A DNA stretch of 64,000 nucleotides, from IMG/VR virus record IMGVR_UViG_3300038805_000284; one strand, written 5' to 3'. The position numbers and the translations under genes were made by a program. Under the pieces are notes generated by a model, which searched no databases, was not told the origin of the DNA, and was given only the letters and a program-made list of their open reading frames with translations. This DNA is from an uncultured virus (IMG/VR IMGVR_UViG_3300038805_000284) (taxonomy: Duplodnaviria > Heunggongvirae > Uroviricota > Caudoviricetes). This document shows, in pieces, positions 1 to 30,040 of this stretch. Position 1 is the first letter of the stretch. Each line of letters starts with the position of its first letter.

Positions 1-184
1 AAGGTAAATGCCGCGCTGCAGCAGGCTGTAATACACCTGGGCCGGTGCTTGGTCATGGTGCGCCTCGCTGGTCAACACCTCTATTACCGTTGCGCGTTCT
101 GTCTCACTCAGGGCGCGTGGTTGTGGCCCTGATTTGCATGTTATCTCAAAATCACGTGGCGCAAACCCAGGTTGACACACAGGG

Positions 185-204
185 TTCTGCAATGATGCAG
201 AGGG
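185..204 (+). repeat. 20-bp element TTCTGCAATGATGCAGAGGG (hairpin CTGCA-ATGA-TGCAG), copy 1
   Basis: Identical 20-mer recurs at 1319-1338; the two copies bracket the ardC gene. Confidence 0.85.
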
Positions 205-250
205 CTCTTGAAGGATGCTTTTTTAAACCTTCAAAAGTCATTTTTTAAGA

Positions 251-303
251 ATTGAAAAATTGGATTTTCAAAATTGAAAAATTGGATTTTCAAAATTGAA
301 AAA
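251..303. repeat. 22-bp tandem repeat ATTGAAAAATTGGATTTTCAAA (about 2.4 copies), each unit with an inverted repeat TTGAAAA-N6-TTTTCAA; operator-like
   Basis: Units at 251-272 and 273-294, partial at 295-303; lies just upstream of a sigma70-type promoter; related copy at about 1364-1383. Confidence 0.85.
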
Positions 304-331
304 GTTATTTTTGAAAAAAGCAAATAATAAC

Positions 332-360
332 TTGACAAGGCTTAGCAATTATATTAGAAT
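332..360 (+). promoter_or_regulatory. sigma70-type promoter for ardC
   Basis: TTGACA (332-337), 17-bp spacer, TAGAAT (355-360); AT-rich upstream region. Confidence 0.8.
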
Positions 361-415
361 ATAAGTATAAACAATGGGAAAGCAAGTTGCTTCCTATCAC
401 TCGAAAGGGAGTACA

Positions 416-1288
416 ATGCAGAACAAAATCAAAAATAAAGTTTACGAAAGCATCATGAACGCTCTTGATAAGGGAGTTGTTCCTTGGCGCAAGCCTTGGT
501 CGGCCGTAAACAACGGCCGCGCTTATAACGGTATCACCGGCCGCCCTTACAAGGGTATCAACGTGGTGTTGTTGGCGGCTGCGGAAATGAGTGAAGGCTT
601 CACCACAAACGCCTGGGCCACCTTCAACCAGATCAACAAGGCCGGTGGACACGTTCGCAAAGGCGAAAAGTGCAAAGCATTCGTAGTGTTTTGGTCAAGA
701 GTTGAAAAGAAAAATGTCGAAGAGGATTCCGACGAGGATGAAAATTTTTACTGGCTCTTGAAAATTCACAACGTCTTCAACTTGTCTCAAACGGCTGGCC
801 TGGAACATTTGATTGAGGAAGCAGAAGTGAAAGCCCTTGTTCCCGATAGTGAAAAAGTGGTCGATGCTCTTGCAGCATTCGACAAGTACACGAACCGCGA
901 AGGCTTGACCGTTAAGGAGAATGGAGGGGAAGCATACTATTCAATCACGGGCGATTACATTGGAATGCCTAAGAAGGAAACTTTCGATTCCGGTGAAGAT
1001 TATGTTAGCACCGCATTTCATGAAGCGGTGCACTCTACCGGCGCAAAAAAACGCCTTGACCGGCCAATGAAAGGTTACAGCAACATCGACAATCACTCGT
1101 ATTCTTATGAAGAGTTGATTGCAGAATTTGGTGCGGCTTTCACTTGTGCACATTTTGGGATCGACAACACGATTGAGAACAGTGCTGCTTACATTGAGAG
1201 TTGTAAGCGCACTATCGATGAGAACAAACACTCCATCATGAGCGCGGCAAGCGCAGCTCAAAAAGCGGTTGAATTTATTCTGAAATAA
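416..1288 (+). CDS. ardC: ArdC-like antirestriction protein (N-terminal ssDNA-binding domain + zincin-like MPTase domain)
   Basis: PWRKPW, YKGIN, W-TFNQ..GG-VRKGEK and VFN-Q motifs; HEAVHSTG...RLDR and YSYEELIAE zincin-like motifs; start placed at MQNKIK behind AAGGGAG (ORF track starts at 374). Confidence 0.9.
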   Translation: MQNKIKNKVYESIMNALDKGVVPWRKPWSAVNNGRAYNGITGRPYKGINVVLLAAAEMSEGFTTNAWATFNQINKAGGHVRKGEKCKAFVVFWSRVEKKNVEEDSDEDENFYWLLKIHNVFNLSQTAGLEHLIEEAEVKALVPDSEKVVDALAAFDKYTNREGLTVKENGGEAYYSITGDYIGMPKKETFDSGEDYVSTAFHEAVHSTGAKKRLDRPMKGYSNIDNHSYSYEELIAEFGAAFTCAHFGIDNTIENSAAYIESCKRTIDENKHSIMSAASAAQKAVEFILK

Positions 1289-1302
1289 GAATCCCTTTCG
1301 AT

Positions 1303-1357
1303 TCCCTCCCCCCAAACCTTCTGCAATGATGCAGAGGGTTTTGGGGAGGGATTTTTT
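1303..1357 (+). terminator. Rho-independent terminator-like hairpin after ardC, containing copy 2 of the 20-bp element
   Basis: TCCCTCCCCCCAAACCTTCTGCA-ATGA-TGCAGAGGGTTTTGGGGAGGGA long stem followed by TTTTTT. Confidence 0.8.
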
Positions 1358-1397
1358 AAAAACGAAAATTTGAATTTTCAAAAAAGGAAAAATCAAA

Positions 1398-2039
1398 ATG
1401 ACAACTTTTACAGAAGTGTTTTGCCACTGTGACAATGACACCTTCAAGTTCGACATTGTAAACAATGTCACTTGTGGAGGGTGCGGCAAGCAAGTATTGC
1501 CGACAAACTTCAAACACCGCAAAGGGTTTGATGACTTTGTTGCATCGATTTTGCAAGGGGGCCTTGTAAGTTTTAAATCTTGCAATTTACACCCGAACTT
1601 CGCAAGCGAGTCTCAATTTAATAACGTCATGACTCGGAGAGTTGCAGGAAGTAGTATTCCTTATGAGACGCTTATTTATCAGATTAAGAAGCACGAAGAT
1701 AAAAGCGACCTTAGTGTGTGCGTATGTGGGCACAATGCGTTTGAGTACTCTAAGGATGGAGGGGTTGTGTGCGCTCAATGCAAGCGAAGGGTAAAGCATG
1801 AAAGCCTTAAGGGCCGAATTGGATATGAGGCTTTCATTACGGCCATTTGTCTTGGACAAGTGGTACACTTTGAAACGCTCTATCCAAATGAAGATTATCA
1901 GAACCTTAGCTTTACGTTCGCCTATGAAAACCACAATAGACTGTTTAACGATAATTTAGAAGTTGGTTTCCACCTGGCGGATAAGATTGAACGGGCGTAT
2001 GAGGAAAGCATGTATGACTTTTCTATTGGGGATATTTGA
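1398..2039 (+). CDS. hypothetical protein with two tandem Zn-ribbon-like repeats
   Basis: Two homologous halves: FCHCDNDTF...VTCGGC...GFDDFVASI..G.LVSF and VCVCGHNAF...VVCAQC...GYEAFITAI..GQVVHF; RBS AAGG upstream. Confidence 0.75.
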   Translation: MTTFTEVFCHCDNDTFKFDIVNNVTCGGCGKQVLPTNFKHRKGFDDFVASILQGGLVSFKSCNLHPNFASESQFNNVMTRRVAGSSIPYETLIYQIKKHEDKSDLSVCVCGHNAFEYSKDGGVVCAQCKRRVKHESLKGRIGYEAFITAICLGQVVHFETLYPNEDYQNLSFTFAYENHNRLFNDNLEVGFHLADKIERAYEESMYDFSIGDI

Positions 2040-2047
2040 AAAATAAA

Positions 2048-2076
2048 TCGACAAGGGTTCTCAAATATGAGAGAAT
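2048..2076 (+). promoter_or_regulatory. possible sigma70-type promoter
   Basis: TCGACA-17 bp-GAGAAT in the intergenic gap; shares GACAAGG and AGAAT with the ardC promoter. Confidence 0.4.
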
Positions 2077-2096
2077 GTTGGAAAGGGTAGAATATA

Positions 2097-2432
2097 ATGA
2101 CTATTCAAGAATTTGTAACAAGAGTTGCGGATGATCGTCGAAGAAATATCATAACGTACCTTTTCAGAAGTGCGGCTGTTGAAATTGTAATCAGTCCGCT
2201 TCCCAAAGAAGTGCGGGACGAGATCTTCCGGGGAATCCTTAACAACCTTCGATATGAATATCAATTGAATGTTGATGTAAAGGGGTTTCGCTCGAAGACT
2301 GGAACCATTTATCACCGTTATGTCATGAAAGGTTTCGGATCTGGTGACACGGTTATGGATAGAAACCTTATCGGCGAAATTCATGATGAACTGGTTAAAG
2401 TCGGCGCCCACAAACCTTATGGGGTAATTTGA
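2097..2432 (+). CDS. hypothetical protein
   Basis: 111-aa ORF fitting the plus-strand gene array. Confidence 0.65.
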   Translation: MTIQEFVTRVADDRRRNIITYLFRSAAVEIVISPLPKEVRDEIFRGILNNLRYEYQLNVDVKGFRSKTGTIYHRYVMKGFGSGDTVMDRNLIGEIHDELVKVGAHKPYGVI

Positions 2433-2450
2433 GAAAGGAATTTTAGAAAA

Positions 2451-3065
2451 ATGGAAAATCAGATTTTGGAAAATCAATTTAACAAAAAGCGAAATTTCTT
2501 GACTGTTCGAGAGGCTTCGATTCAATATAATGTTTCAACCGTATCAATTCGCAATTGGATTGCTGCAGGACTGCAAACGTATATGATGAAGCCAGAAAAT
2601 GGGTATCACCTGGTTGCCCACGTAGCTGTTGCAGAAGTTGACCAATGGCTGAAAGACCGTGAACAGCGGTATGTAAAGAACAAGGGGCCTGGAAGGCCAC
2701 CGATTGAAGCGGCGAAAGGAAACTACATTCAGGAATACTTGAACAATAGCCCGGAGAAGTATTTCAAAAAGGAACAGAAAGAACGGTTTATGAGATACGT
2801 ATTGAATGGCGATACTCACAATGTAATCGCCATGCTATTGGCCGGGCACGATCATAAAGAACATTCGGAAGATTGTTTGATTGCTGCCATTAACAACGGC
2901 GATTACATGATGATCAAAGCGCTCGTTAACAATGGGATTCCTGTTTCAACTGCTGCCATGGAAACGGCAGTGTTTAACGATGATAACAAGATCATTTCTT
3001 TGCTGGATACGCACTATGATGATTCTGATTTTCCGAAAATCAAAAAAGGAATTTTGAGATCTTGA
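2451..3065 (+). CDS. HTH (MerR/excisionase-like) DNA-binding protein with AT-hook-like motif and C-terminal ankyrin-like repeats
   Basis: LTVREASIQYNVSTVSIRNWIAAGL (HTH_17-like); KGPGRPP; LIAAINNGDYMMIKALVNNG and AMETAVFNDDNKIISLL (ankyrin-like). Confidence 0.6.
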   Translation: MENQILENQFNKKRNFLTVREASIQYNVSTVSIRNWIAAGLQTYMMKPENGYHLVAHVAVAEVDQWLKDREQRYVKNKGPGRPPIEAAKGNYIQEYLNNSPEKYFKKEQKERFMRYVLNGDTHNVIAMLLAGHDHKEHSEDCLIAAINNGDYMMIKALVNNGIPVSTAAMETAVFNDDNKIISLLDTHYDDSDFPKIKKGILRS

Positions 3066-3085
3066 TTTTTTGAAAGGAGAATGAA

Positions 3086-3451
3086 ATGTTTTATGATGCG
3101 TTAAAAGAAATTTCAAAATTGAATGAGGGCGAAGACGTATTGAATTATCTGTATGATATGTCATGGAACGCATACCGTATCAGTAAGGGTGATGACAAGA
3201 TTTACGTCTTTAAAACGGACATTGAAAATACTGATAAATACAATAGCGTGTTAGAAGGTTTTAATTTCAATGTTGTTTCCGATTTTGTCTGTGAGAACTT
3301 TTATGGTTATAAGTTTTATTCCGTAAAGATACGCATAAAAGAAAATGGGGAATGGGTTACTTTAAAGAAAGAACAGTTAAAAGAATTACATAAAGAAACA
3401 ATAACAGTTCAGGGTTTAGACTCTGTTGATAAACATTTTGAAAAGGAATAA
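3086..3451 (+). CDS. hypothetical protein
   Basis: 121-aa ORF with AAGGAG RBS. Confidence 0.7.
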   Translation: MFYDALKEISKLNEGEDVLNYLYDMSWNAYRISKGDDKIYVFKTDIENTDKYNSVLEGFNFNVVSDFVCENFYGYKFYSVKIRIKENGEWVTLKKEQLKELHKETITVQGLDSVDKHFEKE

Positions 3452-3456
3452 GTAAC

Positions 3457-3756
3457 ATGGAACCTTTAGAAAGAGAAGAAGAAATCTTAAAAGGATACCG
3501 GAATACCATCGATTCGGTTTGGTCCCTGTTATACAAACTGTTAGATGATCTTGAAAAAGTGAAGTCTGAAATCAAGCCGATTGAATACGGTACCGCCCCT
3601 AATTCTTTGCATCTTATCTTTACTCGTGCGTGGGTTGAAGAAGTTGTTAAAATAGTAAAGGAGGAAGTTAAAAAGGTTACCGAACATGAGTGCCTTGTAG
3701 AAGCTGTGAGAGAAATGTCTAATTTGTCCGTAAAATTTAGATCTAATAAGATCTAA
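3457..3756 (+). CDS. hypothetical helical protein
   Basis: 99-aa ORF with AAGG RBS, tightly packed. Confidence 0.65.
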   Translation: MEPLEREEEILKGYRNTIDSVWSLLYKLLDDLEKVKSEIKPIEYGTAPNSLHLIFTRAWVEEVVKIVKEEVKKVTEHECLVEAVREMSNLSVKFRSNKI

Positions 3757-3773
3757 ATCAAAAGAGGAAGGAA

Positions 3774-3998
3774 ATGTGTAACATGGAAAACTTTATCCCC
3801 GGAACAGAAATCGTTAAGCCCTCTATCAAACTGGTTGGAACGGATGGTAACGCATTTGCCATTATGGGTAATGCTGTTCGTGCATTACGCAAAGCAAAGG
3901 CTCCTCAGTACATAATTGAGAATTACCAAACAGAAGCGACTAGCGGCGATTACAATCACCTCCTGGCCACCACTATGCAGTATGTAGAAGCCGAATAA
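3774..3998 (+). CDS. conserved small phage hypothetical protein
   Basis: LVGTDGNAFAIMG...RALRKA...ATSGDYNHLL, a motif familiar from small phage/mobile-element proteins; GAGGAAGG RBS. Confidence 0.75.
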   Translation: MCNMENFIPGTEIVKPSIKLVGTDGNAFAIMGNAVRALRKAKAPQYIIENYQTEATSGDYNHLLATTMQYVEAE

Positions 3999-4048
3999 GG
4001 AAGGGAACAATAACATGAAGTCAGACAATAAGTGTAAGGCGGTATAAA

Positions 4049-4273
4049 ATGACTATAGAAAAGATTGAAGCATTGGCCAAAGCGATAGCGACTATTCAAA
4101 TTGCTTCAAATACTGTACAGGAAACTCTTAATTGGTATAAGGGGCACAATGAAAAGGTGGCAAACGAAAAGGTTGTTAACATTCTTTGGAATGTTCACAA
4201 TGATCTTTTTGAGGTGTCCGTAATCATGAGCAAAGAACTCCGTGAAACCCGAAAGGAAGTGAAGAGCCTTTAA
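4049..4273 (+). CDS. hypothetical protein
   Basis: 74-aa ORF; its stop overlaps the convergent ligase stop (TTAA). Confidence 0.6.
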   Translation: MTIEKIEALAKAIATIQIASNTVQETLNWYKGHNEKVANEKVVNILWNVHNDLFEVSVIMSKELRETRKEVKSL

Positions 4274-6468
4274 CCAACCTCTTCAGGATCAACATACTTA
4301 TCATTATTCTTCATGGATTCCCCGCGCGCCCAAACGTTGAGCGCCTCTTTGAGGGTCGGTGCGGTGGCGTTGTGCGCGCCGCAATGGGGGCAGGTGGGGG
4401 TCATGGCGTCCCAGGTCACGTTGTAGCCGTAGATCTTCATCGCCAGGTCGGAGCCGTTGAGCGGCGTCCAGGTTTCGGCGTTGGAGCTCTCCAGCAGCAC
4501 GCCTTCCATGTAGGTCTGGCGGGTGATAATGCTGCCCCAGCGGCCCATCTTGCCGAGGGTGGCGGTGCGGACCGTATAGTTGGTGCTGTTGGTCAGCAGC
4601 ACCACGGCATAGCTGGTGTTGGCCTCGGCGTAGAATGGGTCGTCGAAGCGAATGCGGGTCTCGCCGCTCAGGCTGATCTCGTTCGGGGCCAGCAGATTCT
4701 CGGCGAACACCACGCCGTTGGGCAGCCCGGTGGTGACGCCGCGAATCTGCACCGTGACCGGGATGCTCGGGTCCCTGGCGGTGAACTGCAGCCCGATGCT
4801 GGAGATCACCTGGTTCCTGGTGAAGCTGAAGGTCTGAGCCAGCGGGGCACGGGGCACGCGGATGATGCGGTTCTCGATGATGCGCTCGATACGGGTAATG
4901 ACCAGCGGATCGTTGATCTGCAAGCTGGCCCGTGCCGAGTAGACGCCGTCGGCCATCTCCACGATGCGGTTGCCGTTGCGGGCGTTGGTCGGAATGGTGA
5001 AGGAGGCGCTGACCCGACCGGCCTCGTCGCTGATCAGGTTGCTGGCCATCACCTGGCCGTCGCAGCGCAGCACGATGCCGGATTTGCTCGGGGTGAAGTT
5101 GATGCCGGTGACGGTGATGCCGGTCTGGCCGCGCCGCCCGAGGTTGGGCGTGATCTGCAGCATGGCCGGGGGCTTGTCAAACACCGCGTAGGGGTTGATG
5201 TTGCGCTCCTCGGACCAGTCGTTCTGTTCCACCAGCACGGTCTCGTGCCGCATTATCCCTTCCAACTCGCAGAAATGAAAGCCTTTATACTTTAAAATCA
5301 ATGTATCACCATCTTTCTCAGAACGCACCACAACGCCCTCTTTGATGTGGTTATGATCCAATATGCTAGTACCTTGAGAATACAACTCACATGCGCGCAT
5401 AAGCACTTCTGCATTATCCTCATAATTCATTTCTTTGTACGCACTTATCAAAGGAACAACTTCAAAACCTAACGCATAAGATCTGACTACAACTTCTTCC
5501 CAAGGCAACTCCTTAACAACCCCGTTTTGAGTGTTCGTAATACGGTATATCAAAACCTTTCTTTCGTTCTGCTTACAACCGTATGAGTACTCCATGGAAT
5601 TACCGAAAGCCTTTTTAAGTTTTTTATCTTTAATGGTGTGAGTTCCCATAATAGGCCGATTCTTTTCATTATACCCTACGATTTCATAATAAACTGTTTC
5701 ACCCTTTTCCATCCCGGCTTCTTTAAACTGGTTATGAATGTCTGTTCTGTAACCTGGCAACGAAGTATTGACAACCGTTCTTCTAGTTCCTGTAACATAG
5801 TCGTATACAAAAGCGTCATACTTTTTAACAAACAAGTTTACAAACCGCTTAAATAAGCTTAACTTAACTGTTCTCTTCAAATAACCGGTTCTGCCAGAAG
5901 TACCATGACACTTTTCAGTAATGTAAACAGTAGCACCTTCAGGGATAAACTTTGCCATCAACCTTAGTTGCCCCGTATCAAAATGCTCTTTGAAATCGGG
6001 AAATTTAATCTTTTCACGCTTCTTTCTTTTCTTTTTAGGGTTACCAATAGCCTTGTATGTTGCCGGTGTGTAATACTTTTCACAAACCTTTTTGCCATTT
6101 ACCTTATCGATTAAATCTCCAACACTTAAATTGAATTTCCCAGTCCAATCCAACCCCTTTAGTGGCATCCAGAAACCTTCTGACTTTGCACTTCTAAGCC
6201 TTACAGTTCTAACCCTGCCATTATCTTCAAAGAATCCGCCCTTACTTTCAGGATCTTTATTTAATTCTTTGTTCTTGAATAGGTTATTCTGCTTACACAT
6301 CTCAAAAGATAATTTCCCATCTGTTGGAAAATAAATACCAACAGTACCCTCCACAGTATCTTTTGAAATGACTACATTGTAACCAGAAGCAGTTCCAATG
6401 TTTAATCTGTCTGCATTGGGGTGTTCTTTTACGTTTTCAATTTTACAAATAATTGCTTTGTACGACAC
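4270..6468 (-). CDS. RNA ligase (Rnl2/DRB0094-like, N-terminal OB domain) carrying a 313-codon in-frame foreign insertion near its C-terminus
   Basis: HPNADRL N-domain, RLR..KSEG, motif I TEKCHGTS, YYEIVG, motif IV EGVVVR, motif V LKYK; the putative native end EGI-MKNNDKYVDPEEVG is split by the insert. Confidence 0.85.
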   Translation of the reverse strand: MSYKAIICKIENVKEHPNADRLNIGTASGYNVVISKDTVEGTVGIYFPTDGKLSFEMCKQNNLFKNKELNKDPESKGGFFEDNGRVRTVRLRSAKSEGFWMPLKGLDWTGKFNLSVGDLIDKVNGKKVCEKYYTPATYKAIGNPKKKRKKREKIKFPDFKEHFDTGQLRLMAKFIPEGATVYITEKCHGTSGRTGYLKRTVKLSLFKRFVNLFVKKYDAFVYDYVTGTRRTVVNTSLPGYRTDIHNQFKEAGMEKGETVYYEIVGYNEKNRPIMGTHTIKDKKLKKAFGNSMEYSYGCKQNERKVLIYRITNTQNGVVKELPWEEVVVRSYALGFEVVPLISAYKEMNYEDNAEVLMRACELYSQGTSILDHNHIKEGVVVRSEKDGDTLILKYKGFHFCELEGIMRHETVLVEQNDWSEERNINPYAVFDKPPAMLQITPNLGRRGQTGITVTGINFTPSKSGIVLRCDGQVMASNLISDEAGRVSASFTIPTNARNGNRIVEMADGVYSARASLQINDPLVITRIERIIENRIIRVPRAPLAQTFSFTRNQVISSIGLQFTARDPSIPVTVQIRGVTTGLPNGVVFAENLLAPNEISLSGETRIRFDDPFYAEANTSYAVVLLTNSTNYTVRTATLGKMGRWGSIITRQTYMEGVLLESSNAETWTPLNGSDLAMKIYGYNVTWDAMTPTCPHCGAHNATAPTLKEALNVWARGESMKNNDKYVDPEEVG
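4315..5253 (-). other. GC-rich foreign insertion (DUF4815-like tail-fibre fragment + Lar-like Zn-ribbon fragment), 939 bp
   Basis: Abrupt switch to strongly G/C-ending codons; NPYAVF, PLAQTF, GVLLESSNAETWTP..SDL motifs; CPHCGA...TLKEALNVWAR; CAT/ATG repeated at 4312-4314 and 5251-5253. Confidence 0.85.
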
Positions 6469-6483
6469 AACAAAACCCTTTCT

Positions 6484-7248
6484 TTAGTAATTCATTACCA
6501 ACAGATCCTTAACTTTGCCTCTCGACTTAGCATTGGCACTGATAACACGGGCCGTGTCAATTTCCACAATCCTAAAATCTTTATACCGTTCTCGAACCCA
6601 TTCATGATATGAATTGGAAAGCATGGCTTTGCATTTTAAGTTTTCAAAAGTCTTTGCCAGCCTTTCATGATCATCTTGTTTAAAAGAATCTTTATCATAA
6701 TCTGAATAGGTTCCCAGGTATGGAGGGTCAAGGTATGCAAAATCATTGGAATTGCATTTAAGAACGGTCTCAAAATCCCCGTGAACTAATTCTGCATGTG
6801 CAAGCAGCCTGGAGGCATTCCGTAGGTTTACAGCGTCTAAAATCTTAGGATTCGTATAGTTCCCAAATGGCACATTAAACTTTCCATCTTTGTTAACCCG
6901 GTGCAGCCCATTGAAACACGTTTTGTTCAGGTAAATAAACCGGGCCGCAATAGAAACGTCATCTTGAGGATCGGTGTCTCGAATTTTGTAAAAGTATTCT
7001 TCAGTATTGACGAACCGTGAAAGCGCCGTAACGACGCTTGTAAGGTCTTCTTTGATTGCCTTGTACGTGGTTATCAAATCTTTATTCGAATCGCTCAGAA
7101 CAGCCTTCTCGGGCCTTAGAAAGAAGAATACGGAACCCCCTCCCAAGAAAGGTTCATAGTACTTGTCGAATGTTGGAAAATACTTGCTGAATTGTTTCAG
7201 CGATTTTGTTTTCCCACCTGCCCATTTGATAAACGGTTTCGACATCAT
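6484..7248 (-). CDS. dam: Dam-family (D12) DNA adenine methyltransferase
   Basis: PFIKWAGGK, YEPFLGGGSVF, FNGLHRVNKDGKFNVPFG and YLDPPY; start overlaps the RNR stop (ATGA). Confidence 0.92.
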   Translation of the reverse strand: MMSKPFIKWAGGKTKSLKQFSKYFPTFDKYYEPFLGGGSVFFFLRPEKAVLSDSNKDLITTYKAIKEDLTSVVTALSRFVNTEEYFYKIRDTDPQDDVSIAARFIYLNKTCFNGLHRVNKDGKFNVPFGNYTNPKILDAVNLRNASRLLAHAELVHGDFETVLKCNSNDFAYLDPPYLGTYSDYDKDSFKQDDHERLAKTFENLKCKAMLSNSYHEWVRERYKDFRIVEIDTARVISANAKSRGKVKDLLVMNY

Positions 7249-10200
7249 GAACACCCGGATGAAGTACCGCAAACGGAACAGTAATCGCATGTTCCAGATC
7301 TAAACATCATGCCACCACAATCAGGACAAATACTCCCTGTCATTTCTTTCGTCGCTTTCTCCTCTTCTTGTTTGATAAACGTCAACTCTAACCACCTGGC
7401 AATGTAATCCATTATCGATGTTGTTAGCGGAATCTTAGGGTTTGCTGTAATGCCGCAAGGATCAAACTTAGTCCCTTTCATTTTGTCTACAATCTTTTCT
7501 AACGGCACACCGTACTGCAAACCCAATGAAACGATTGTTGCAAAAGAATCCATGACGCCAGACACTAATGTACCTTCTTTGGCCATCTTTATGAATAGTT
7601 CACCGACATCCCCATTCTCATACTTACCTGCGTGAAGGTATGCTTCGTATCCACCAATATCTAATTTGTGGGCAATGGCTTCACGGGTATCTTTAAGGCG
7701 TACCCTATTATCTGTTTTCCGTAGCTCAACTTTAACAGGTTCAGGATCCTTCTTAACTTCTGTTAAGGGTTGCAAACTCTTAGAGCCATCGCGATATACC
7801 GCGATACATTTTAAACCCTTTTTCCAAGCATAGATATAAGACTGTCGAATGTCTTCAACTTTACTATCTGCTGACATGTTCACGGTGTTGTGGTTAATAA
7901 TACCATTCCCGATAAATGTATTGTTAGCCGGTACATGGAAATCATAAACCTTTGCAATCGATTGTTCAATGGAAACTACTTCTGAAAATGTTATACCGTT
8001 TTCAAAAACAGATTTAACAGGATCGGGCAAAGAGTATATGTGACCGTTGACCGCATTGAGTACGCTATTATATGTTGGTACTAACCCTCTGACCATGTAA
8101 GTTTGATAAAAAGAAACTATAGAAGGATGTGTAGTCGGAACCCCTCTTCTCTTGATATTATCTTCAATATCCTTAAGATAACAAGGGAATTTACCACTTG
8201 TCATACATTCATCTTTATCTTCTTTATTTGTTTTTAAGGGAAGCTTTATGGATTTTTGAATATCAGTACGATGAAAATGTCCGAACAACTTGACAAACTT
8301 ACCTATACCAGGGTAACGAACTCTAATAGAACCGGAATACCTATCATCCGCATCAATTATGTAACTTTCGATTCCGAAATTATCAAGCAATGATTGCAAT
8401 TGCTTTTTAAACTTACTATGATCATTCCTGTAACTTATGTATTCGGTTCTGTACCGATTTCTGCTTTCAAAACTTCCACGTAACCACAACCCTTTTATGA
8501 AATTTTGGATAACTTTTTTAGGAGATCCCATTATAACTTTAGGGATCTCTTTTGCATTAAACCCATTACCATTCACACCAATACACCGCATAAACTCACA
8601 TAAAGATGCAGACCTGTAACGAAGAGTCGGGAGCCTCCCAGTACCGTTAACGTGAAAGTAACCTTCTAATGAAAATGTTTCCCTTAAATAGTCCTTAATA
8701 ATGTCATAAAGGTAATAATTTTTAAACTTATCTGTGCGAAAATCTATACAGTCTCCATTATCACATACATTACCTAAAGCAATAAACGCCCCTATAATCC
8801 AACCTACATTCTCATCAACCTTAATCGAACAATCAATTTCCCTGTTGTATATATTATTTGAGTCGAAATAAGAAAATTTTACCCTTTCATAATTTTTAGC
8901 CCAAACATCCCCACCAATCTTGACACCTACGAATTGACCTTCTACAATTTCATCTAACCTAACCCAGTCGAAACTCCCATCTTCTTTTACGGCTTTTATT
9001 CTGTGATTAGGAGTTCCTTCAATTGTTCTACCATCTGACAAGGTAACCTTAACAGTACTTCTTTCCCCACCATAATAGAAATAGTTGGCTACTTGAGGAT
9101 CTGACTCGGAAGCTACTTTTAAGTTTATATCTGAAAAAGTATCTTCAGTTTCACCACTATAAAGATCTCCAATCTCTACAATACCTTTCTCGGTTGGTAT
9201 GAGAGTGTCCCCAGTAACGCATTTACTAATAGCCCCGTTTAAATGGGGCTGGCATGCCGCCATCATTCTAATATGATCTTTCCAATGAATCTCATTAGCT
9301 GTTTTTAACACTCCCTTATCGTAACTCTTATTTTGCGCATATTGAACACACTTAGGTTCAATAAGCAAAGAACCACCGCCTGCTAAAGTCTTTAATTGCT
9401 TTAGTGCAAACAAAGGTTCGATACCGGTGGAGTCACAATCCATAATCAGACCGATGGTTCCACAAGGGGCAAGCAATGTTAACTGCGAATTCCTAATACC
9501 GTGCTCTTTAACCCTATTAGCAGTAACATCATCTGTCAATCTTTTGGCAATCCCATAAACAGCCTCTTTGGCCTTATCACTTCTTTTGTATTCTGTAAAA
9601 GAACCTAACCTCTTTGCCAAGTCAATAGAAGTATTATAAGCAAATGTTGTCATGTTCTTAGTGACGTTCTTTGCGAATTCCCTGGCTTGTTCTGAATCGT
9701 ACGGCATTCCCATTACCATTAAAGTAGCGCCAAGATTTGAAAAGCCTAGCCCTAACGGGCGAGTCATCTTCGTAATTCTTTCAATCTCTTTTGTAGGATA
9801 GTCTGCACTTCCTACTATAATATCCATAGCAGTAATCATAACTTTAATATCTTCTTTGAAGTTATTGAAGTCAAAATCCTGCTTATCATTAAGATACTTC
9901 ATAAGATTCATAGAACTAAGATTGCATGAACTGTTATCTACGGCAAAAAATTCTGAACACTGAGCAATCAATACGCCATTAGCATAAACCAAATTATTAA
10001 TAGGTTCTGTTAGGTTGTAAGTAACTTCCTGTTCTTTTTGTTTGTCGATGTCGACAATAACTGGATTGCGATCCTTCCAATCATCAAGCTTATCGATGAT
10101 GTTATCTAATTTTTTATTGTAATTATCTGATGAAAATTTCACATGCTCTTTGAATATCTCTAATGAACCTTTATCATCTACATAAAGATGAAAATAATTA

Positions 10201-11663
10201 TCTCTAGGGTCTGAACTGAAACCTACACTAGATCTGATACCGAAAATATCCAATAGCATTTGAATATCTAATAGTTCTTTTTTGGATTTAGATTTATAAT
10301 CCAGTAAATAACTATTCTCGCTAATAAACACGTTATCTGTAAACAATTTAGACAAGTGATTACTTATATCTGTTAATCCTTTTTTCGGGAAACCGAATTC
10401 ATTGAAATCCTCATCTTCGGGATCTTCGCTAAATACCTTAACGCCAGGAAACAATTCAACTGGCATATTTAGTTTCAAATCTTTTGTTTGAATCTTCTTA
10501 CCTTCAATGTACCAATTATGGTTCTCAGTACATTTAACTTCCCGTCCATCCGATAATGTAACAACATAAATATCATTCATTCCTGTGCACATATATGCAA
10601 TCGGGTTGCTGACAACAGAATCTTTCGTGTATACACTTGGCATCCTGCCAGTCTTCACAGATTCTTCATACAGTTCTTTGATTGGGATCAATCCGTTTGG
10701 AGTATAGATAACAGTGTCGCCAGTAAAGCATGGGTTTGGTGAATCAATATCACCAAGCTGTGGAACGGGATTATCAATGTTCACACGGTCTCGAAAGATT
10801 ATCCCAGGATCGCCTGTTTCCCAGGCAATCTCGGCAGTTCTTTTCAGTACATCCTTAGCGTTAATGATCTCGCCGTTCTTTAAATTGTAAATTTGTTTGT
10901 TACGAACCTTCTGCATGAAATCATCCGTAGCAACAATAGAGTGATTCGTATTTTGAAACGAAACTGTTGCATACGCTTCTTCAGCATCCACACCGTTTGC
11001 AATTAAAATTTTTGCTTTATCCTCTTCGATTTTCTTGCAATCGATGAAATCCATAATATCAGGATGATCAATATCCATGCAAACCATCTTTGCAGATCTT
11101 CTAGTCTTTCCACCAGATCTAATAATTCCTGCTGTTGCGTCCCACATTCGCATGAAAGACAATGGGCCAGAAGCAGAACCCTTATTCGACAAGGGAGCGC
11201 CTTTGTGGCGCAGTTTGGACACGTTTGTGCCAACACCGGAACCACCTCTGAAAATCAATCCTTCGGTTGTGTTATGTTCCAGAATAGATTCCATATTGTC
11301 ATCTACCGGGACAATGAAACACGCGGAACCTTGATTCGTTGAAGTATCGGATCCTATATTGAACCAAACAGGACTGTTAAACGCAGCCCGTTGATTGATC
11401 AAAATACCTTTCAAATGAATGTTGAAGTTGTTTACTTCGTCCTCAGAATCAAAGTAACCGTTCTTTTTTCCCCATTCAGTTATTGTGTTTACAATCCTGT
11501 CTATGATTGTTACTGCGCTGTATTCGTCGCTTGTTGCGTATTTAGATGCACAAATTGTTGCTGCCCTGTCCGACCATTTCTCAGGAACCTCGAACCCCTT
11601 CTTTTCAAAAATAACCTCTTCACCTTGTTTAATGATCACGTCTACTTTGCGCGTAATTGTCAT
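7245..11663 (-). CDS. nrdJ: class II (adenosylcobalamin-dependent) ribonucleotide reductase with two inteins, C-terminal TSCPD domain and Zn ribbon
   Basis: FNSPVWFN, SACF, GGSGVG.N.S, GGKTRRSAKM, NP[intein]CSE, CNLSS, RPLGLG, APCGTIG, STGIEP, AISK[intein]TVN, GLKCIAVYRDGSK, C-terminal CPDCG...C..CG..SGCS. Confidence 0.95.
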   Translation of the reverse strand: MTITRKVDVIIKQGEEVIFEKKGFEVPEKWSDRAATICASKYATSDEYSAVTIIDRIVNTITEWGKKNGYFDSEDEVNNFNIHLKGILINQRAAFNSPVWFNIGSDTSTNQGSACFIVPVDDNMESILEHNTTEGLIFRGGSGVGTNVSKLRHKGAPLSNKGSASGPLSFMRMWDATAGIIRSGGKTRRSAKMVCMDIDHPDIMDFIDCKKIEEDKAKILIANGVDAEEAYATVSFQNTNHSIVATDDFMQKVRNKQIYNLKNGEIINAKDVLKRTAEIAWETGDPGIIFRDRVNIDNPVPQLGDIDSPNPCFTGDTVIYTPNGLIPIKELYEESVKTGRMPSVYTKDSVVSNPIAYMCTGMNDIYVVTLSDGREVKCTENHNWYIEGKKIQTKDLKLNMPVELFPGVKVFSEDPEDEDFNEFGFPKKGLTDISNHLSKLFTDNVFISENSYLLDYKSKSKKELLDIQMLLDIFGIRSSVGFSSDPRDNYFHLYVDDKGSLEIFKEHVKFSSDNYNKKLDNIIDKLDDWKDRNPVIVDIDKQKEQEVTYNLTEPINNLVYANGVLIAQCSEFFAVDNSSCNLSSMNLMKYLNDKQDFDFNNFKEDIKVMITAMDIIVGSADYPTKEIERITKMTRPLGLGFSNLGATLMVMGMPYDSEQAREFAKNVTKNMTTFAYNTSIDLAKRLGSFTEYKRSDKAKEAVYGIAKRLTDDVTANRVKEHGIRNSQLTLLAPCGTIGLIMDCDSTGIEPLFALKQLKTLAGGGSLLIEPKCVQYAQNKSYDKGVLKTANEIHWKDHIRMMAACQPHLNGAISKCVTGDTLIPTEKGIVEIGDLYSGETEDTFSDINLKVASESDPQVANYFYYGGERSTVKVTLSDGRTIEGTPNHRIKAVKEDGSFDWVRLDEIVEGQFVGVKIGGDVWAKNYERVKFSYFDSNNIYNREIDCSIKVDENVGWIIGAFIALGNVCDNGDCIDFRTDKFKNYYLYDIIKDYLRETFSLEGYFHVNGTGRLPTLRYRSASLCEFMRCIGVNGNGFNAKEIPKVIMGSPKKVIQNFIKGLWLRGSFESRNRYRTEYISYRNDHSKFKKQLQSLLDNFGIESYIIDADDRYSGSIRVRYPGIGKFVKLFGHFHRTDIQKSIKLPLKTNKEDKDECMTSGKFPCYLKDIEDNIKRRGVPTTHPSIVSFYQTYMVRGLVPTYNSVLNAVNGHIYSLPDPVKSVFENGITFSEVVSIEQSIAKVYDFHVPANNTFIGNGIINHNTVNMSADSKVEDIRQSYIYAWKKGLKCIAVYRDGSKSLQPLTEVKKDPEPVKVELRKTDNRVRLKDTREAIAHKLDIGGYEAYLHAGKYENGDVGELFIKMAKEGTLVSGVMDSFATIVSLGLQYGVPLEKIVDKMKGTKFDPCGITANPKIPLTTSIMDYIARWLELTFIKQEEEKATKEMTGSICPDCGGMMFRSGTCDYCSVCGTSSGCS
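7887..9221 (-). mobile_element. intein 2 in NrdJ (445 aa) with LAGLIDADG-type endonuclease domain
   Basis: AISK|CVTGDT ... EGTPNHRI ... GWIIGAFIALG, FIKGLW, LQSLLDNFGI ... VYDFHVP, FIGNGIINHN|TVNM. Confidence 0.92.
9960..10730 (-). mobile_element. intein 1 in NrdJ (257 aa, Gln-terminated, remnant endonuclease)
   Basis: NP|CFTGDT ... block B VKCTENHNW ... block F TYNLT, ends ANGVLIAQ|CSEF, immediately before the catalytic Cys of NPCxE. Confidence 0.88.
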
Positions 11664-15288: not shown

Positions 15289-18200
15289 CTAATTAGGGAA
15301 CAAAGACATAAGGTTGTCTTTACCGAAAAGTTTCTTAAGATCCGAAGGTGTCATACCTAGATCATTCAATGCCCTGCGCATTAGTTCTTGCGCCTTCTTT
15401 GCCTGCACCTCTGTTGGCGTTGCTGCTTCAACTTCCTGTGCAAGTACTTGCTGATACAACGAAAAGACTTGTGCTTCGGGTGAGGAATCATCTACACCTT
15501 TTGAAGGGTCAATCTTTTGCTTAGCAGGTGCAGGTTGCCCTTGTTGTGGTGCAGATTGCGCTTGTGGTGCCGGTTGTGGTGCCGGTGTCTGTTGCGGTGC
15601 AGGTGCAGGGGCCTGTTGTGGCGCCAATTCTTGGGCAAGCATACGAAACGCCCTGGAAGCCTTCATACGGTCGCTAAGGCTTCTTCTGCTCCTATTCCTG
15701 GCCATAGGTGCCATTTCCTGTTGCGGCGCTTGTGGAGCCTGTTGAGGGGCTTGTGGTGCTTGCGGTTGCGGAACTTCCCCTGTAGGAATCCCTGTCGGGT
15801 TCTTCTTAGGGGGCTGTCCTTGATCTAAAGGCCTAACAGGAACATTGGCCGGTTGTCCAACTTGTGAACCGGGCTTATTCAGGCTTATTTGAATAATCTT
15901 TTGCTTTTGATCTGGCGTCATCAACTGAATATCTTCGGGGGTCCACCCCAATGCTTTCAGTGACTCATCGCCAGAAGCCGGGTTAGGCTGTGCAGTTTGT
16001 ACAGGAGGGGCACCAGCCCCAGGAACACCACCAGGGGCCGGAGGCCTACCTGTTGACTTCTGCGGGGACTGTGCAGGGGCTTGTGCAGGGGCCTGTTGAG
16101 GCTCTTGGGGGGCCGGAGGCATCTCAGCCATAGGGTCCATTTCCTGCGCACGTCTACGGCGCAAATTGACCATTCTAGCGCGCATACGGGCTTTTCTTCT
16201 TAGTTCTGATTCTCGCTTCATTGACTCTTTTTTTTTTGGGTCTTTGAAATTTTTCCAAACACCCCTGGTAACGTCATTCTCTACCCACTTCTTACCATAG
16301 TCTCCGAAGTATTCACCCCAATAATCCTCTGTAGTCTTATCGGCAGCGGTAACTCCCATTTCTTTCTCTTCTTGAGTATATTGCCCAGGTTGTCTTGGTG
16401 CAGAACTTGACCAGTCATAATCATCTTCTGTACCGAAAGAACGAACTAAATGGTAAAGTTCTTCAGGGGATTCGGCTTCAATGCTGCGATTGTAACCAGC
16501 ATCTGTCCAGTCCTCATTCAGTTTAACAGATCGTTTACTTGGGCCGCGTCTGCGGCGTCTACGCAATTCATTGTTAGCGGTCCACATTTCCTCATCGCCA
16601 ATGTTCGCAAGTAATTCATCTGCGGGGGATTGTGCGACAAGTTCTTCATAAGATTTCATGCGTCTAGGCTGCGCAAAAGAATCCACAATCCTGCCTCGTT
16701 GCATTGCGCGTCTAGGTGCAGGTCTCCTAACGGGCCGTCTCAAAGCACGTCTTTGAGGGCGTCTACGGCGTGAATAAACGTCAAAGCCAATGTCATCGAT
16801 GTCCCCTTCGTACATATCATCAACATCAAGATCTGCTTCAGGACTCCAAGAATCCACAACTTCATCATCTTCTAGCAATGTTACAGGATACGGGATTTCT
16901 GTACCAAACCCACCCGTAACCAGTTCAATGTATTCTGAAAATACGTCTTTTGCTTTTGTTAAGTTTGTAGTCTGAACAAGCGTGCCGTAACCTTTGGGCT
17001 TGTCCACAACTACTTTGTAGATGACGTGTCCGCCTAAACCGGAACCTCTCACTCTTAATCGCCTGGAAGCCATGATAGATCTCCTTAATGCAATTTTGTT
17101 AGCAAACACAGAAGCGCCCTCGTTTACTTCTGACCATTCATATTCGCCTCTGTCGCCTTCGTTAATCTTAATGGAAGTAACAGTGCCGACGGGCGAACCT
17201 TTAACTTGTCCGTACAATTGTTTTAGCCAATCCTCTTCCCAGGAATCGTCTAAAATATCTTCTTTGTTGTAGCTGTTCCAACTGACATATTCGAATTCAA
17301 TAAAGTCGCCAGAAATTGTTGACGGGCTAACCGGGTCTTCAAAGCCGTCATCATAACCGGAACTTGTATTTAAGGTTAGTGCCTGCCCAATGTCACTGAC
17401 AATACCAGAATCATAAATTTGATCAACTAGTTGGTTGGTATCGCCGTCGGGTGTCCAAGAAATTCCCATACTTTCCAATTCCGGAAAACTGATTCTTACG
17501 GTGACTTTCACGTTCCCATCGGGGCCATAAGCAGAACGCTTTCTTTCTCGGGCAGCATTTCTGCCATACAGTTCGTTGTACTGCGTGAAATCTTCACCCT
17601 GGTATTCGCCACTCATACCGCCACCCATAACCATAACACGGTCTAAGGTACCGAAACCGTTTGGAATTCTGCCATAAAGACTTTCAAGATTCAAAGAATT
17701 GATGTATTTTTCAGACAAGTAATCATCTGAAACAATATCATATTCCACATAATCTTCCGTGTAATTCACAGGTGTAGTGTCGGCATGAAGCCGGATGTTT
17801 AAAGTGTCTTGAAGTGCCTGTGCGTCTTTTTCAACTTGAGGGGCAAGATCTTCAATGTACGGTCCCAGGTGGCCAGTGAACATGAAACCTAAACCGTTTT
17901 CAACATCTTCATAGTCATAAATAACCTTGAAGATAAGTGTTGCATCGGAATACGCAAACCTGCGTCGGAAAGATGCAAAGCGCTTTCTAGCATTGATACG
18001 TCTTTGTGCGGTTAATCTTGAAATAGGACGTCTAGCGCGTCTAGCTGATTTACTTTCCGTAGCTTTATGTATATCTCCTATTCTATGCACAACTTCACCA
18101 GAACTTGTCATGACTCCATGAAAAAACGCATAACCACCTTCTTTCAATTCCACATAATCTTCATCATCTCTGTAACGAGAAGCAATACTAGCAATATCCT

Positions 18201-28591: not shown

Positions 28592-30040
28592 TTACCAACT
28601 ACGATTCATTCCAGGGGGAAGGAAACTTTCGGAAACAGAAACATTCTCACTAGGGGCCGTAGAAGGCACCATAGGGGCCTGTGCAGGGGCAGCCATCGCC
28701 GGTGGTGCCATAGGCGCCTGTTGTGGCGGTGCCATGGCTGGAGGGGCCATTTGAGGCGATACAGGCGCCTGTTGTGGCGGTGCCATGGCTGGAGGGGCCA
28801 TTTGAGGCGATACAGGCGCCTGTTGTGGCGGTGCCATGGCTGGAGGGGCCATAGGAGCTGTTTGGGGAGCCGTAGGAGGCACCATAGGCGCTTGTTGTGG
28901 CGGTGCCATAGGCGCTGTTTGAGGGACAGGAGGTGCCATGGTAGGCGGTGCCATTTGAGGGGCCGTAGGAGGCACCATGGGCGCTTGTTGTGGCGGTGCC
29001 ATCGCCGGGGGTGCCATAGGAGCTGTTTGGGGAGCCTGTTGCGTGTACGAATTTTGGTTCATAGATACGGGGTTAACGTACTGATTCATAACATTAGTAC
29101 TGATAACCATAATCAAATCGGAAGGATCTGCCATGGTTTCAAGTGACGTCAAATAATTTTTCCAATTCTCATCTACCTGCCAGAAACCACCCTTCATAAG
29201 AGTGTACCGGGTATCCCGGAAATTGTTTGCATTGCACCGAGAAGTGTCCTTGATGACTTTCAGTAGCTGCATACCTTGCGGATTGCTACCGGAAAAGAAA
29301 GGTTCAATACCGCTTTTGTGATCCTCTTCAAACAAGGTGTACATAAAATTGAAAACAGTTTTCGGTGCAAACCAGACCTTATAAGATACGGGTTCGCCAG
29401 TGATTGCCTGCCCAAAAGCAGCGGAATAATCGAAGATATTCACTACATAACGTTCCTCAACTTGAAAGGATTTTGCACGATTATAAGTAGCGCCAAGAAT
29501 CGGGTCTGATTTAACCTTTTCTTTGTAACCGTCTGATGACAGGTCTTTGCGTTTGATCCCCGTAACCTGTTCAACTTCTTTCCAGCGCTCGTTATGGTCA
29601 TCCCACGCTTTTGATCTAGCAGCGCAGAACGGACAGAAACTGTCCCGAAACATCGGGCGTCTGCCCAATACTTCTACAAGGTATTGATTCATCTGTGCAG
29701 GACACACCACCGTAGCAAACCCAGTTGAACCGTCGTTTCTAACAAAATTGTCAATTTTGTGAACGGGGACTTTGAAATGGAAAGTAAAAATCTCGCTTTC
29801 CTCGGGTGTCAAAGGCTTAAGCGGGTTTTCGGGAACCAAACCTAGATTGTTAGCCATTTCAGGGGTAGGGTTAAAAAGTTTCCACAAAGACGGCTGAAAC
29901 AACGGAACATAAACTTCGTTTGAAAACGAAGTTCCTGCCGAATGGGGCAACGGCTTGTAAAGAATGCTGGCCAAATCTTTACGTTCTTGCTGTTGATCCT
30001 CGGTTGTTACTGCTGACTTTGGCATCGTATAGCTTCTCAT
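28592..30040 (-). CDS. putative ssDNA-binding protein (T4 gp32-like) with long Pro/Ala/Met/Gln repeat tail
   Basis: H...CP...CPFC Zn ligands, RYVVNIFD, KVW..PKTVF; position next to recA. Confidence 0.55.
   Translation of the reverse strand: MRSYTMPKSAVTTEDQQQERKDLASILYKPLPHSAGTSFSNEVYVPLFQPSLWKLFNPTPEMANNLGLVPENPLKPLTPEESEIFTFHFKVPVHKIDNFVRNDGSTGFATVVCPAQMNQYLVEVLGRRPMFRDSFCPFCAARSKAWDDHNERWKEVEQVTGIKRKDLSSDGYKEKVKSDPILGATYNRAKSFQVEERYVVNIFDYSAAFGQAITGEPVSYKVWFAPKTVFNFMYTLFEEDHKSGIEPFFSGSNPQGMQLLKVIKDTSRCNANNFRDTRYTLMKGGFWQVDENWKNYLTSLETMADPSDLIMVISTNVMNQYVNPVSMNQNSYTQQAPQTAPMAPPAMAPPQQAPMVPPTAPQMAPPTMAPPVPQTAPMAPPQQAPMVPPTAPQTAPMAPPAMAPPQQAPVSPQMAPPAMAPPQQAPVSPQMAPPAMAPPQQAPMAPPAMAAPAQAPMVPSTAPSENVSVSESFLPPGMNRSW
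28713..28852. repeat. 51-bp coding tandem repeat (about 2.7 perfect copies) inside a longer degenerate repeat region 28660-29040
   Basis: GGCGCCTGTTGTGGCGGTGCCATGGCTGGAGGGGCCATTTGAGGCGATACA at 28713 and 28764, partial at 28815; encodes VSPQMAPPAMAPPQQAP. Confidence 0.9.

Follow-up and report, generated by a model that had tools for sequence, protein, structure and literature searches.

Within a 64,000-nt stretch of an uncultured tailed phage (Caudoviricetes; IMG/VR record IMGVR_UViG_3300038805_000284; the whole stretch is hereafter the window), the gene for an RNA ligase is interrupted shortly before its stop codon by a GC-rich block (4312-5253) composed of five co-oriented pieces from two sources. 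Very probably the block arose by illegitimate (homology-independent) insertion, a real and very recent event among phages in nature, for which entry of the mosaic at an ATG codon as a circle or tandem repeat would be the simplest route.

The interrupted ligase gene, the insert and its donors

The block has a GC content of 64.9%, compared to 40.0% for the remaining window, and its edges are sharp in 200-nt windows (0.39 at 4101-4300; 0.63-0.67 wholly within the block; 0.40 at 5301-5500). It lies in an open reading frame (ORF) on the minus strand (4270..6468, 732 aa) that consists of an RNA ligase core, 313 foreign codons totalling 939 bp and a native 13-residue tail, with the coding strand reading ...GAA GGG ATA ATG CGG CAC ... 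GAA TCC ATG AAG AAT. The 936 nt between both ATGs contain no stop codon in the ligase frame, compared to eight in frame +1 and one in frame +2. The insert has a GC content at third codon positions (GC3) of 0.92, close to the 0.90 of the baseplate gene identified below as a donor and well above the 0.36 of the ligase core. An earlier annotation made from the sequence alone (the first-pass annotation) had described a high-GC block of 313 codons inserted in frame between two ATG copies, a description that composition, frame and coding-strand sequence confirm as written. No second copy of the insert occurs in the window, and deposited phages gave no match in DNA searches with the insert or with 3000-7300.

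The ligase core matches PF09414 (30.4 bits) and PF21189 (30.1 bits), both above the cut-off of 27, and the 'RNA ligase' family phrog_968 (E 9e-55 over aa 3-404). All 16 aligned relatives (48-54% identical) end in the motif ...CELEGIxKNxDxYVDxEE(I/V)x, which is contiguous in each of them, as well as in contigs from two sequencing runs (X3 and X5, at a 4315-to-5255 joint), but is split here by 313 residues. Removing the block restores the motif, and the suggestion that a plausible ligase end would be recovered in this way is borne out by its presence in 16 of 16 relatives. The C-terminal extension is absent from all 16 aligned ligases and from a further ligase-type match (P0110), and among the best 120 of 3014 matches only the query joins the ligase and DUF4815 families; relatives carrying the extension at AT-rich composition, which would have marked it as an ancient domain, were found neither among these 120 nor among the 16. 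A search for the ligase in IMG/VR gave three pattern matches, none of them confirmed. The parts of the gene are listed below in coding-strand order, followed by the neighbouring gene.

5254..6468, minus strand: RNA ligase core (aa 1-405), from a GTG start to ...CELEGI, assigned by Pfam, phrog_968 and 16 relatives
5251..5253, minus strand: upstream ATG copy (Met 406), read from the sequence, with a single ATG in the empty-site contigs; the ligase's own codon or the exchange point
5243..5250, minus strand: 8 nt (CGGCACGA) continuing the zinc-ribbon donor past its own ATG; joint 2 consists of the final 4 nt (ACGA), which the baseplate donor also has
4859..5246, minus strand: piece A, interior of the DUF4815 baseplate gene in its native frame (L001 4002..4389, 388 nt, 9 mismatches)
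4852..4858, minus strand: joint 3, a deletion of 42 nt (14 codons) at the 7-nt repeat CGTGCCC; the 42 nt are kept in all donors
4420..4858, minus strand: piece B, the same baseplate gene continued in frame (L001 4432..4867, 439 nt, 14 mismatches)
4419/4420, minus strand: joint 4, which skips 129 nt of the donor, with no microhomology
4402..4419, minus strand: piece C, 18 nt (VTWDAM) from further down the baseplate gene (L001 4997..5014, 18/18)
4315..4401, minus strand: piece D, part of a second phage-like element: a short zinc-ribbon gene (TPTCPHCGAHNATAPTLKEALNVWARGES), beginning with that gene's start codon and identified by matches to L039, with joint 5 at the shared ATG
4312..4314, minus strand: downstream ATG copy, which directly adjoins piece D in the zinc-ribbon donor, the match of the X5 donor contig reaching as far as 4312
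4270..4311, minus strand: conserved C-terminal ligase tail (KNNDKYVDPEEVG) and stop, cut off from the core by the insert; motif in 16 of 16 relatives
4049..4273, plus strand: convergent neighbour gene (74 aa, no family), whose end overlaps the ligase stop by 4 nt

Pieces A-C derive from the interior of one gene, carried by 33 viral loci (from an IMG/VR protein search with the insert) and 64 genomic loci. Window 5246..4420 differs from these donor loci by as few as 23 mismatches in 824 aligned nt, and one locus (L032) is 96.5% identical to the piece A region over its 395 nt. The gene encodes a protein of 1182 aa that scores 337.9 bits on PF16075 (DUF4815; L001 1907-5455), whereas the insert reaches 20.5 bits against a cut-off of 30, at profile positions 526-559 only, and is therefore a fragment of a member rather than a member. 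The fragment corresponds to an internal part of the donor protein (residues about 699-1036) with two internal deletions. The donor is homologous to the DUF4815 baseplate protein ORF65 of Staphylococcus phage phi812 (PDB 9euf; E 7.5e-93 over donor residues 769-1179), also the first fold match of the predicted insert model (Foldseek E 1.9e-12), and in L005 the gene has a baseplate-wedge gene before it and merA- and merT-like genes after it. The DUF4815 assignment made from the sequence alone was therefore correct, though the protein belongs to the baseplate and not, as had been proposed, to the tail fibre. No native DUF4815 gene was present among the six large proteins of the window that were examined.

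Contigs of the baseplate donor are present in all four runs examined (X1, X3, X4 and X5), and at joint 3 the donor contigs of each have 35 extra letters, which are lacking in an X1 contig that follows the window across the deletion (4786-4881, 0 mismatches). Piece B has 3 extra nt relative to L001 (4533-4535), omitted by contigs of X3, X4 and X5 but by no X1 contig. Piece C has exact matches of 18-19 nt in two records (G001 and G002), and the loose ends before 4402 in X1, X4 and X5 are the donor continuation.

The last 90 nt of the insert occur in no baseplate locus. Piece D is instead matched by L039 (L039 1127-1184 to window 4318-4375, 58/58; L039 1249-1280 to 4377-4408, 87.5%), where the zinc-ribbon gene (MTPACPHCGG...CRACWHNATAPTLKEALNVWARGE...) adjoins terminase genes. 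This gene has a weak match to phrog_599 (Lar-like restriction alleviation; E 0.0075, 17.4 bits) and a Pfam zinc-ribbon match below cut-off, and piece D retains one CxxC knuckle only. Among metagenome contigs, an exact 24-mer from piece D was found only in L039 and in L038, the window's own sequence; exact stretches of piece D gave no match in IMG/VR, and a protein search with the L039 gene gave two matches, both to the downstream ORF. The piece D stretch also occurs in other contexts in contigs of X1, X4 and X5, with loose ends at 4397, 4375, 4379, 4318 and 4312. One of these contexts departs from the window above 4397 and, assuming gapless cover of 4318-4397, its coding strand would give a shorter form with a GTG start and one CxxC. 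The proposals of a mosaic and of capture from an unrelated high-GC phage were thus upheld in that five pieces with identifiable donors were found, the donors being two rather than one.

A DUF4815 gene that is 99% identical in protein occurs in an IMG/VR contig, in the Desulfosarcina alkanivorans chromosome and in a Dichelobacter nodosus genome, in the last of which it is broken by a TAG and a frameshift. DNA identity of ~95-97% (824 nt) extends to genomes labelled Ectothiorhodospira, Desulfobulbus (two copies), Synergistaceae, Zoogloea, Limisphaerales, Opitutaceae and others. Copies ~97% identical to the insert source are found in bacteria of several phyla, and these near-identical sequences point to a putative, very promiscuous 65%-GC prophage-like element. 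A link to the vrl island, which has a size of 27 kb, was considered. The name 'VrlC' is used for DUF4815 proteins in passages of two reports (PMC4701759, PMC10199479), and the abstract of a third describes integration of vrl into ssrA (PMC2593044). In the D. nodosus genome, contig C10 has the broken copy at 12.7-16.3 kb; a further homologue (27-33% identical) is located at 33.2-35.8 kb and ssrA at 51.0 kb. The name 'vrl' was rejected for the donor element, as the position of the gene in D. nodosus does not settle it.

Occupied and empty sites in public sequencing runs

Part of the window region 3700-5900 is contained in 23 public runs, and X1, X3, X4 and X5 were aligned to 3000-7000 as Logan contigs, which are the product of a different assembler and not raw reads. 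Contigs of X1 span 3000-4459 (mean word depth, 15.6) and 5197-7000 (14.6) with no mismatches, and cross both junctions. In the same run, depth is 18.1 for the insert-specific contig at 4544-4666 and 10.6 for the one that crosses the internal deletion (4786-4881), values near those of the flanks, and contigs of resident donor variants reach 23.8-28.5. No empty-site joint was seen among the X1 contigs. Such joints do occur in X3 (record 10; 614 nt) and X5 (record 22; 509 nt), where single contigs join 4315 to 5255 and skip 939 nt with no mismatches; these runs date from 2019 and 2024 and belong to two studies other than that of X1. In X4, another sample from X1's study, the flank depth is ~3 and no contig lies at either junction. 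X2 has 0.78 of the words, and the insertion was seen only in runs of one sample (X1 aligned). The first-pass annotation had named the empty site as a check on its reading, and its presence in X3 and X5, together with the interrupted gene in X1, indicates that the gene is uninterrupted in close relatives and interrupted in at least one sample.

The alternative raised at the same time, that the block is a chimera of assembly or amplification, fails in its first form and is weakened in its second. A join made by the assembler is excluded because a second assembler bridges both junctions, at which only 3 nt are shared, too few for a k-mer graph. The exclusion is less strict for a molecule formed in vitro, while one sample was amplified or its library prepared, and absent from phage particles. 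Amplification chimeras form at microhomologies, the donors are abundant in the same sample (depth 24-28) and the insertion is confined to runs of that sample, all of which would suit this origin. Even so, the depths of the insert contigs (10.6-18.1) resemble those of the phage flanks (14.6-15.6), the X1 contigs pass both junctions with no competing empty-site contig, and an artefact would have to enter and exit at the same codon, with five co-oriented pieces and the frame kept throughout. An origin in vitro is accordingly improbable, and it is highly probable that the insertion event is real.

The event also appears to be young. Among 38 donors of at least 89% identity and at least 860 aligned nt, with each record represented once, the median donor-donor distance is 27 mismatches, and the insert differs from donors by 23-44. 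In 824 nt there are seven substitutions unique to the insert, for which an unsampled allele or error-prone synthesis may account. The flanks contain a single difference in ~1.1 kb, base 5254 beside the upstream ATG and exactly at the joint, which is A in the window (ATA) and C in the empty-site contigs of X3 and X5 (ATC); both encode Ile, leaving the protein unchanged, and the zinc-ribbon donor also has C at the position next to its ATG. An insert that falls within donor diversity, retains the GC3 of its donors and has a nearly unchanged flank argues for a recent event.

Two further observations concern these contigs. A contig of X3 joins 3057 to 3844, skipping 786 nt (two small ORFs), and is 5.6% divergent over 3844-4253 but identical in the ligase, suggesting that related phages are mosaic there too. 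From ~6016 on, the ligase is also matched by X1 and X4 contigs whose preceding sequence is GC-rich and unrelated (loose end '6016 before'), probably by chance at a pyrimidine-rich stretch.

Joints and route of entry

The six joints share, in coding-strand order, 3 nt (ATG), 4 nt (ACGA), 7 nt (CGTGCCC), 0 nt, 2-7 nt (TG to CGCCATG) and 3-4 nt (ATG or CATG). At joint 5 the start codon of piece D coincides with the Met codon that ends piece C, so that TG and up to CGCCATG are shared. Few shared bases in the absence of long homology, along with an empty site and separate donors, place the event in the class of microhomology-mediated illegitimate recombination. The first-pass annotation had proposed a recent microhomology-mediated capture, and the donors, the empty site, the mosaic and the lack of any relative with the extension all support it.

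As a correction to that annotation, the insert appears to be circularly permuted relative to the zinc-ribbon donor. From its opening ATG-CGGCACGA the insert passes into the baseplate gene at ACGA, which both sources have in common. Beyond its match to 4312-4379, an X5 contig continues with the reverse complement of ...CGGCACGATGCCGCGAAAGGA (loose end '4312 before'), for which the coding strand is GAATCC-ATG-CGGCACGATGCC, and L039 also has CGGCACGATGCC, starting 5 nt after its ATG. These sequences are suggestive, though not conclusive, of a zinc-ribbon donor in which the 8 nt that open the insert and the ~87 nt that close it form one stretch, split at an ATG that the ligase also has. Of the eight permuted nucleotides, four are unexplained by the baseplate gene, a match that we estimate chance would produce about once in 100-250 cases.

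A mosaic of this kind could have been built by microhomology-mediated joining, slippage or template switching among DNAs in one infected cell. It would then have been a small circular or tandemly repeated DNA, with the two ends of the insert adjacent as in the zinc-ribbon donor (...GAATCC-ATG-CGGCACGA...), and would have entered the ligase by one reciprocal exchange at the ATG. A single exchange there would explain the 'duplicated ATG', and the contiguity of the insert ends in the donor makes entry as a circle or tandem the simplest route. The window encodes recombination genes of its own, including a UvsX-like recombinase, an SbcC-like nuclease, a metallophosphoesterase and a RusA-like resolvase.

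The same real insertion might tentatively be ascribed to one episode of serial template switching during recombination-dependent replication or break repair, of the type of microhomology-mediated break-induced replication (MMBIR) or synthesis-dependent end-joining. On this path a 3' end would leave the ligase at the ATG, copy 8 nt of the zinc-ribbon donor, jump to the baseplate gene, slip by 42 nt and 129 nt within it, pass to the zinc-ribbon start codon and re-anneal to the ligase at the ATG. Five of the six joints share 2-7 nt, every piece is co-oriented, the two jumps inside one gene are short (42 and 129 nt), the 18-nt piece is typical of low-processivity copying, the UvsX-like recombinase and an SbcCD-like nuclease are encoded in the window, and seven insert-unique substitutions in 824 nt, as against one difference in ~1.1 kb of flank, would fit error-prone synthesis. 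These substitutions may equally stem from an unsampled donor allele, however, and template switching would have to visit the zinc-ribbon donor twice, the second visit ending exactly where the first began, and return to the ligase with base-exact precision, both of which a single exchange with a circle gives without coincidence. Such an episode is possible rather than probable.

Several points weigh against the insertion of a circle or tandem as set out here. The run evidence consists of contigs only, X1 may be the window's own source sample, so that the insertion is documented in one sample, and the metagenome contig L038, which equals window 1-10363 at 100% identity, possibly derives from the same data. 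The ATA of the window opposite the ATC of the empty-site contigs means either that the ancestor was polymorphic exactly there or that the base was altered at the joint, and joint 4 is without microhomology. The permutation rests on 8 nt, and for four of them the baseplate gene is an explanation too. None of the donors found is exact, and the zinc-ribbon donor is known from L039, which has 63 extra nt, and from loose ends of 30 letters. The zinc-ribbon gene was not found in the five genomes and four viral records that carry the baseplate gene, nor the L039 terminase in those viral records; the records are partly incomplete, so this failure does not show the donors to be separate. With the zinc-ribbon gene missing beside the baseplate gene, two donors are needed in one cell, and the presence of a 40%-GC phage in the same cell as 65%-GC elements cannot be taken for granted.

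Two other readings, an element able to move or remove itself (insertion sequence, intein or intron) and an old C-terminal extension of the whole family, would be compatible with the 3-nt direct repeat that flanks the block and with insertion in frame, yet they are very unlikely indeed. The block ends form no inverted pair and there is no terminal repeat beyond the ATG; ATG flanks the block, but the zinc-ribbon donor has its own ATG at that position, so that a crossover would explain the pair even without a target-site duplication. Repeat, Pfam and PHROGs searches agree with the first-pass annotation in finding no terminal inverted repeats, transposase or integrase, and no Hint, endonuclease or intein family. 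The content of the insert is internal fragments of two genes, with no second copy in the window, and an old extension is contradicted by its absence from the 16 relatives and P0110 and by a GC3 of 0.92. An insertion sequence or transposon was rejected for lack of terminal inverted repeats and a transposase family. An intein was rejected on the lack of an intein family in Pfam and PHROGs and on the termini, which read MRH or RHE at the start of the block and GES or ESM at its end, with M or K next. A self-splicing intron was rejected because the sole Rfam match in 4000-5600 (E up to 1) was ASdes, below threshold (E 0.77). The event is a one-off illegitimate recombination, and the block is neither a mobile element, an intein nor an ancient domain. 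The relative P0110 (792 aa, 57% identical) contains LAGLIDADG and intein-splicing Pfam families, indicating that this ligase family is also a target of true inteins.

Open frame, recipient phage and known systems

Every piece of the insert is in its native frame and the ligase tail is read correctly, for which the inferred chance is ~(1/3)^3 to (1/3)^5. This improbability would speak for an adaptive fusion, in which the ligase would have gained a folded carbohydrate- or surface-binding module from the baseplate protein and the frame would be under selection. An AlphaFold model computed for the insert from a 22-sequence alignment does predict a confident immunoglobulin-like sandwich at insert residues 31-114 (predicted local distance difference test [pLDDT], 70-91), with moderate scores at 138-221. 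The mean pLDDT is 58.9, though, with residues 120-137 (the deletion site), 227-270 and 282-314 below 50; the second domain is truncated in the predicted model, the zinc ribbon has a single CxxC knuckle, and the insert splits a motif conserved in all 16 relatives. The need to keep that motif translated explains the open frame equally well. The ligase tail does not look dispensable, and insertions that stopped translation before it would probably be lost, so that the open frame is best read as survivorship and not as evidence of a useful fusion. Gain of a selected domain is thus unlikely, the encoded fragment is probably a passenger rather than a working domain as judged from the model, and the proposed RNA ligase-tail-fibre fusion is doubtful as a functional protein, being an internal and truncated piece. 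As the convergent neighbour overlaps the ligase stop, no gene lies downstream of the ligase on its strand.

The recipient is a large uncultivated phage from an anaerobic digester; the longest contig of the fusion-protein cluster is 126,821 nt, and the phage DNA polymerase is at most 30% identical to that of any deposited phage. Besides genes of replication and recombination, the window has genes for an ArdC-like anti-restriction protein, a DNA methyltransferase, a ribonucleotide reductase and a baseplate wedge protein. The ArdC-like protein, with a zincin peptidase domain, lies at 374-1288 (plus strand), 3 kb upstream on one side of the ligase, and the methyltransferase, of Dam type, is immediately adjacent on the other (6484-7290, minus strand). 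The large subunit of the ribonucleotide reductase (7245-11663, minus strand; 1472 aa) matches a terminase-type PHROG in part and has two large insertions of intein-like appearance (Cys at the start, HN at the end).

Regions of the window with >55% GC outside the block are 1-150 and 501-650 (peak, 0.56-0.58), 15501-16200 and 28601-29050. The islands at 15500-16200 and 28600-29050 are Pro/Gln/Ala-rich low-complexity linkers in native proteins (1079 aa and 482 aa). These larger islands (15.5-16.2 kb and 28.6-29.05 kb) were considered as further insertions and rejected on that ground.

Quite possibly, though we would not put it at even chances, the locus is the fresh scar of a single natural event, in which a mosaic circle or a burst of template switching carried sequence from two 65%-GC elements into a 40%-GC phage of lytic type at a 3-nt match. 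If so, the scar documents base by base how phage mosaicism arises, and the phage must have replicated in a cell that held both elements, a physical link of host or co-infection across a gap of 25 GC points. The event also shows DNA of GC-rich temperate elements reaching an AT-rich phage that has replication genes of its own, and captured fragments could act as markers of host or co-infection. Most evidence of mosaicism consists of old, eroded junctions. In this case the joints are readable to the base while the donors and the uninterrupted gene are still circulating, so the event can be timed, followed in reactor time series and reproduced at the bench. For annotation, the locus is a warning that a 'fusion protein' read from an open frame of a metagenomic phage can reflect an inserted passenger and not a new function. 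The event is ordinary in kind and unusually well preserved.

Known systems that bear comparison include the 'moron' insertions reportedly described by Hendrix and colleagues. In the abstract of a report on phage mosaicism, the underlying process is held to be unknown and illegitimate recombination is proposed, with illegitimate and homeologous recombination as candidate sources that are still argued (PMC2327257). As in illegitimate recombination of that kind, foreign DNA unlike the recipient in composition is joined here without homology at a few bases. Unlike it, the insert lies within a gene and in frame rather than between genes, it is a five-piece patchwork from two donors, and both parents and the empty site can still be observed. 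MMBIR, fork stalling and template switching, and templated insertions at repaired breaks have been described mainly in eukaryotes and Escherichia coli. They share with this locus several short templated pieces, microhomologies of 0-7 nt, jumps within and between templates and a complex rearrangement at one site; the setting here is an environmental phage, in contrast, and the contiguity of the end pieces in the donor fits a single exchange with a circle better. Inteins likewise insert in frame into phage enzyme genes, but this insert has no Hint or endonuclease domain and no splice-junction residues, and contains recognisable fragments of other genes. The phi812 DUF4815 protein (PDB 9euf chain 0, ORF65) is a homologue of the donor gene product, whereas the insert is an internal fragment with two deletions and sits in an enzyme gene, not in a virion module. 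Campbell-type integration, in which a circular DNA enters by a single crossover, is a parallel to the permuted ends, as the donor is permuted once integrated and the crossover sequence stands at both ends, though here the crossover is 3 nt, there is no integrase or attachment site, and the circle is inferred and not seen.

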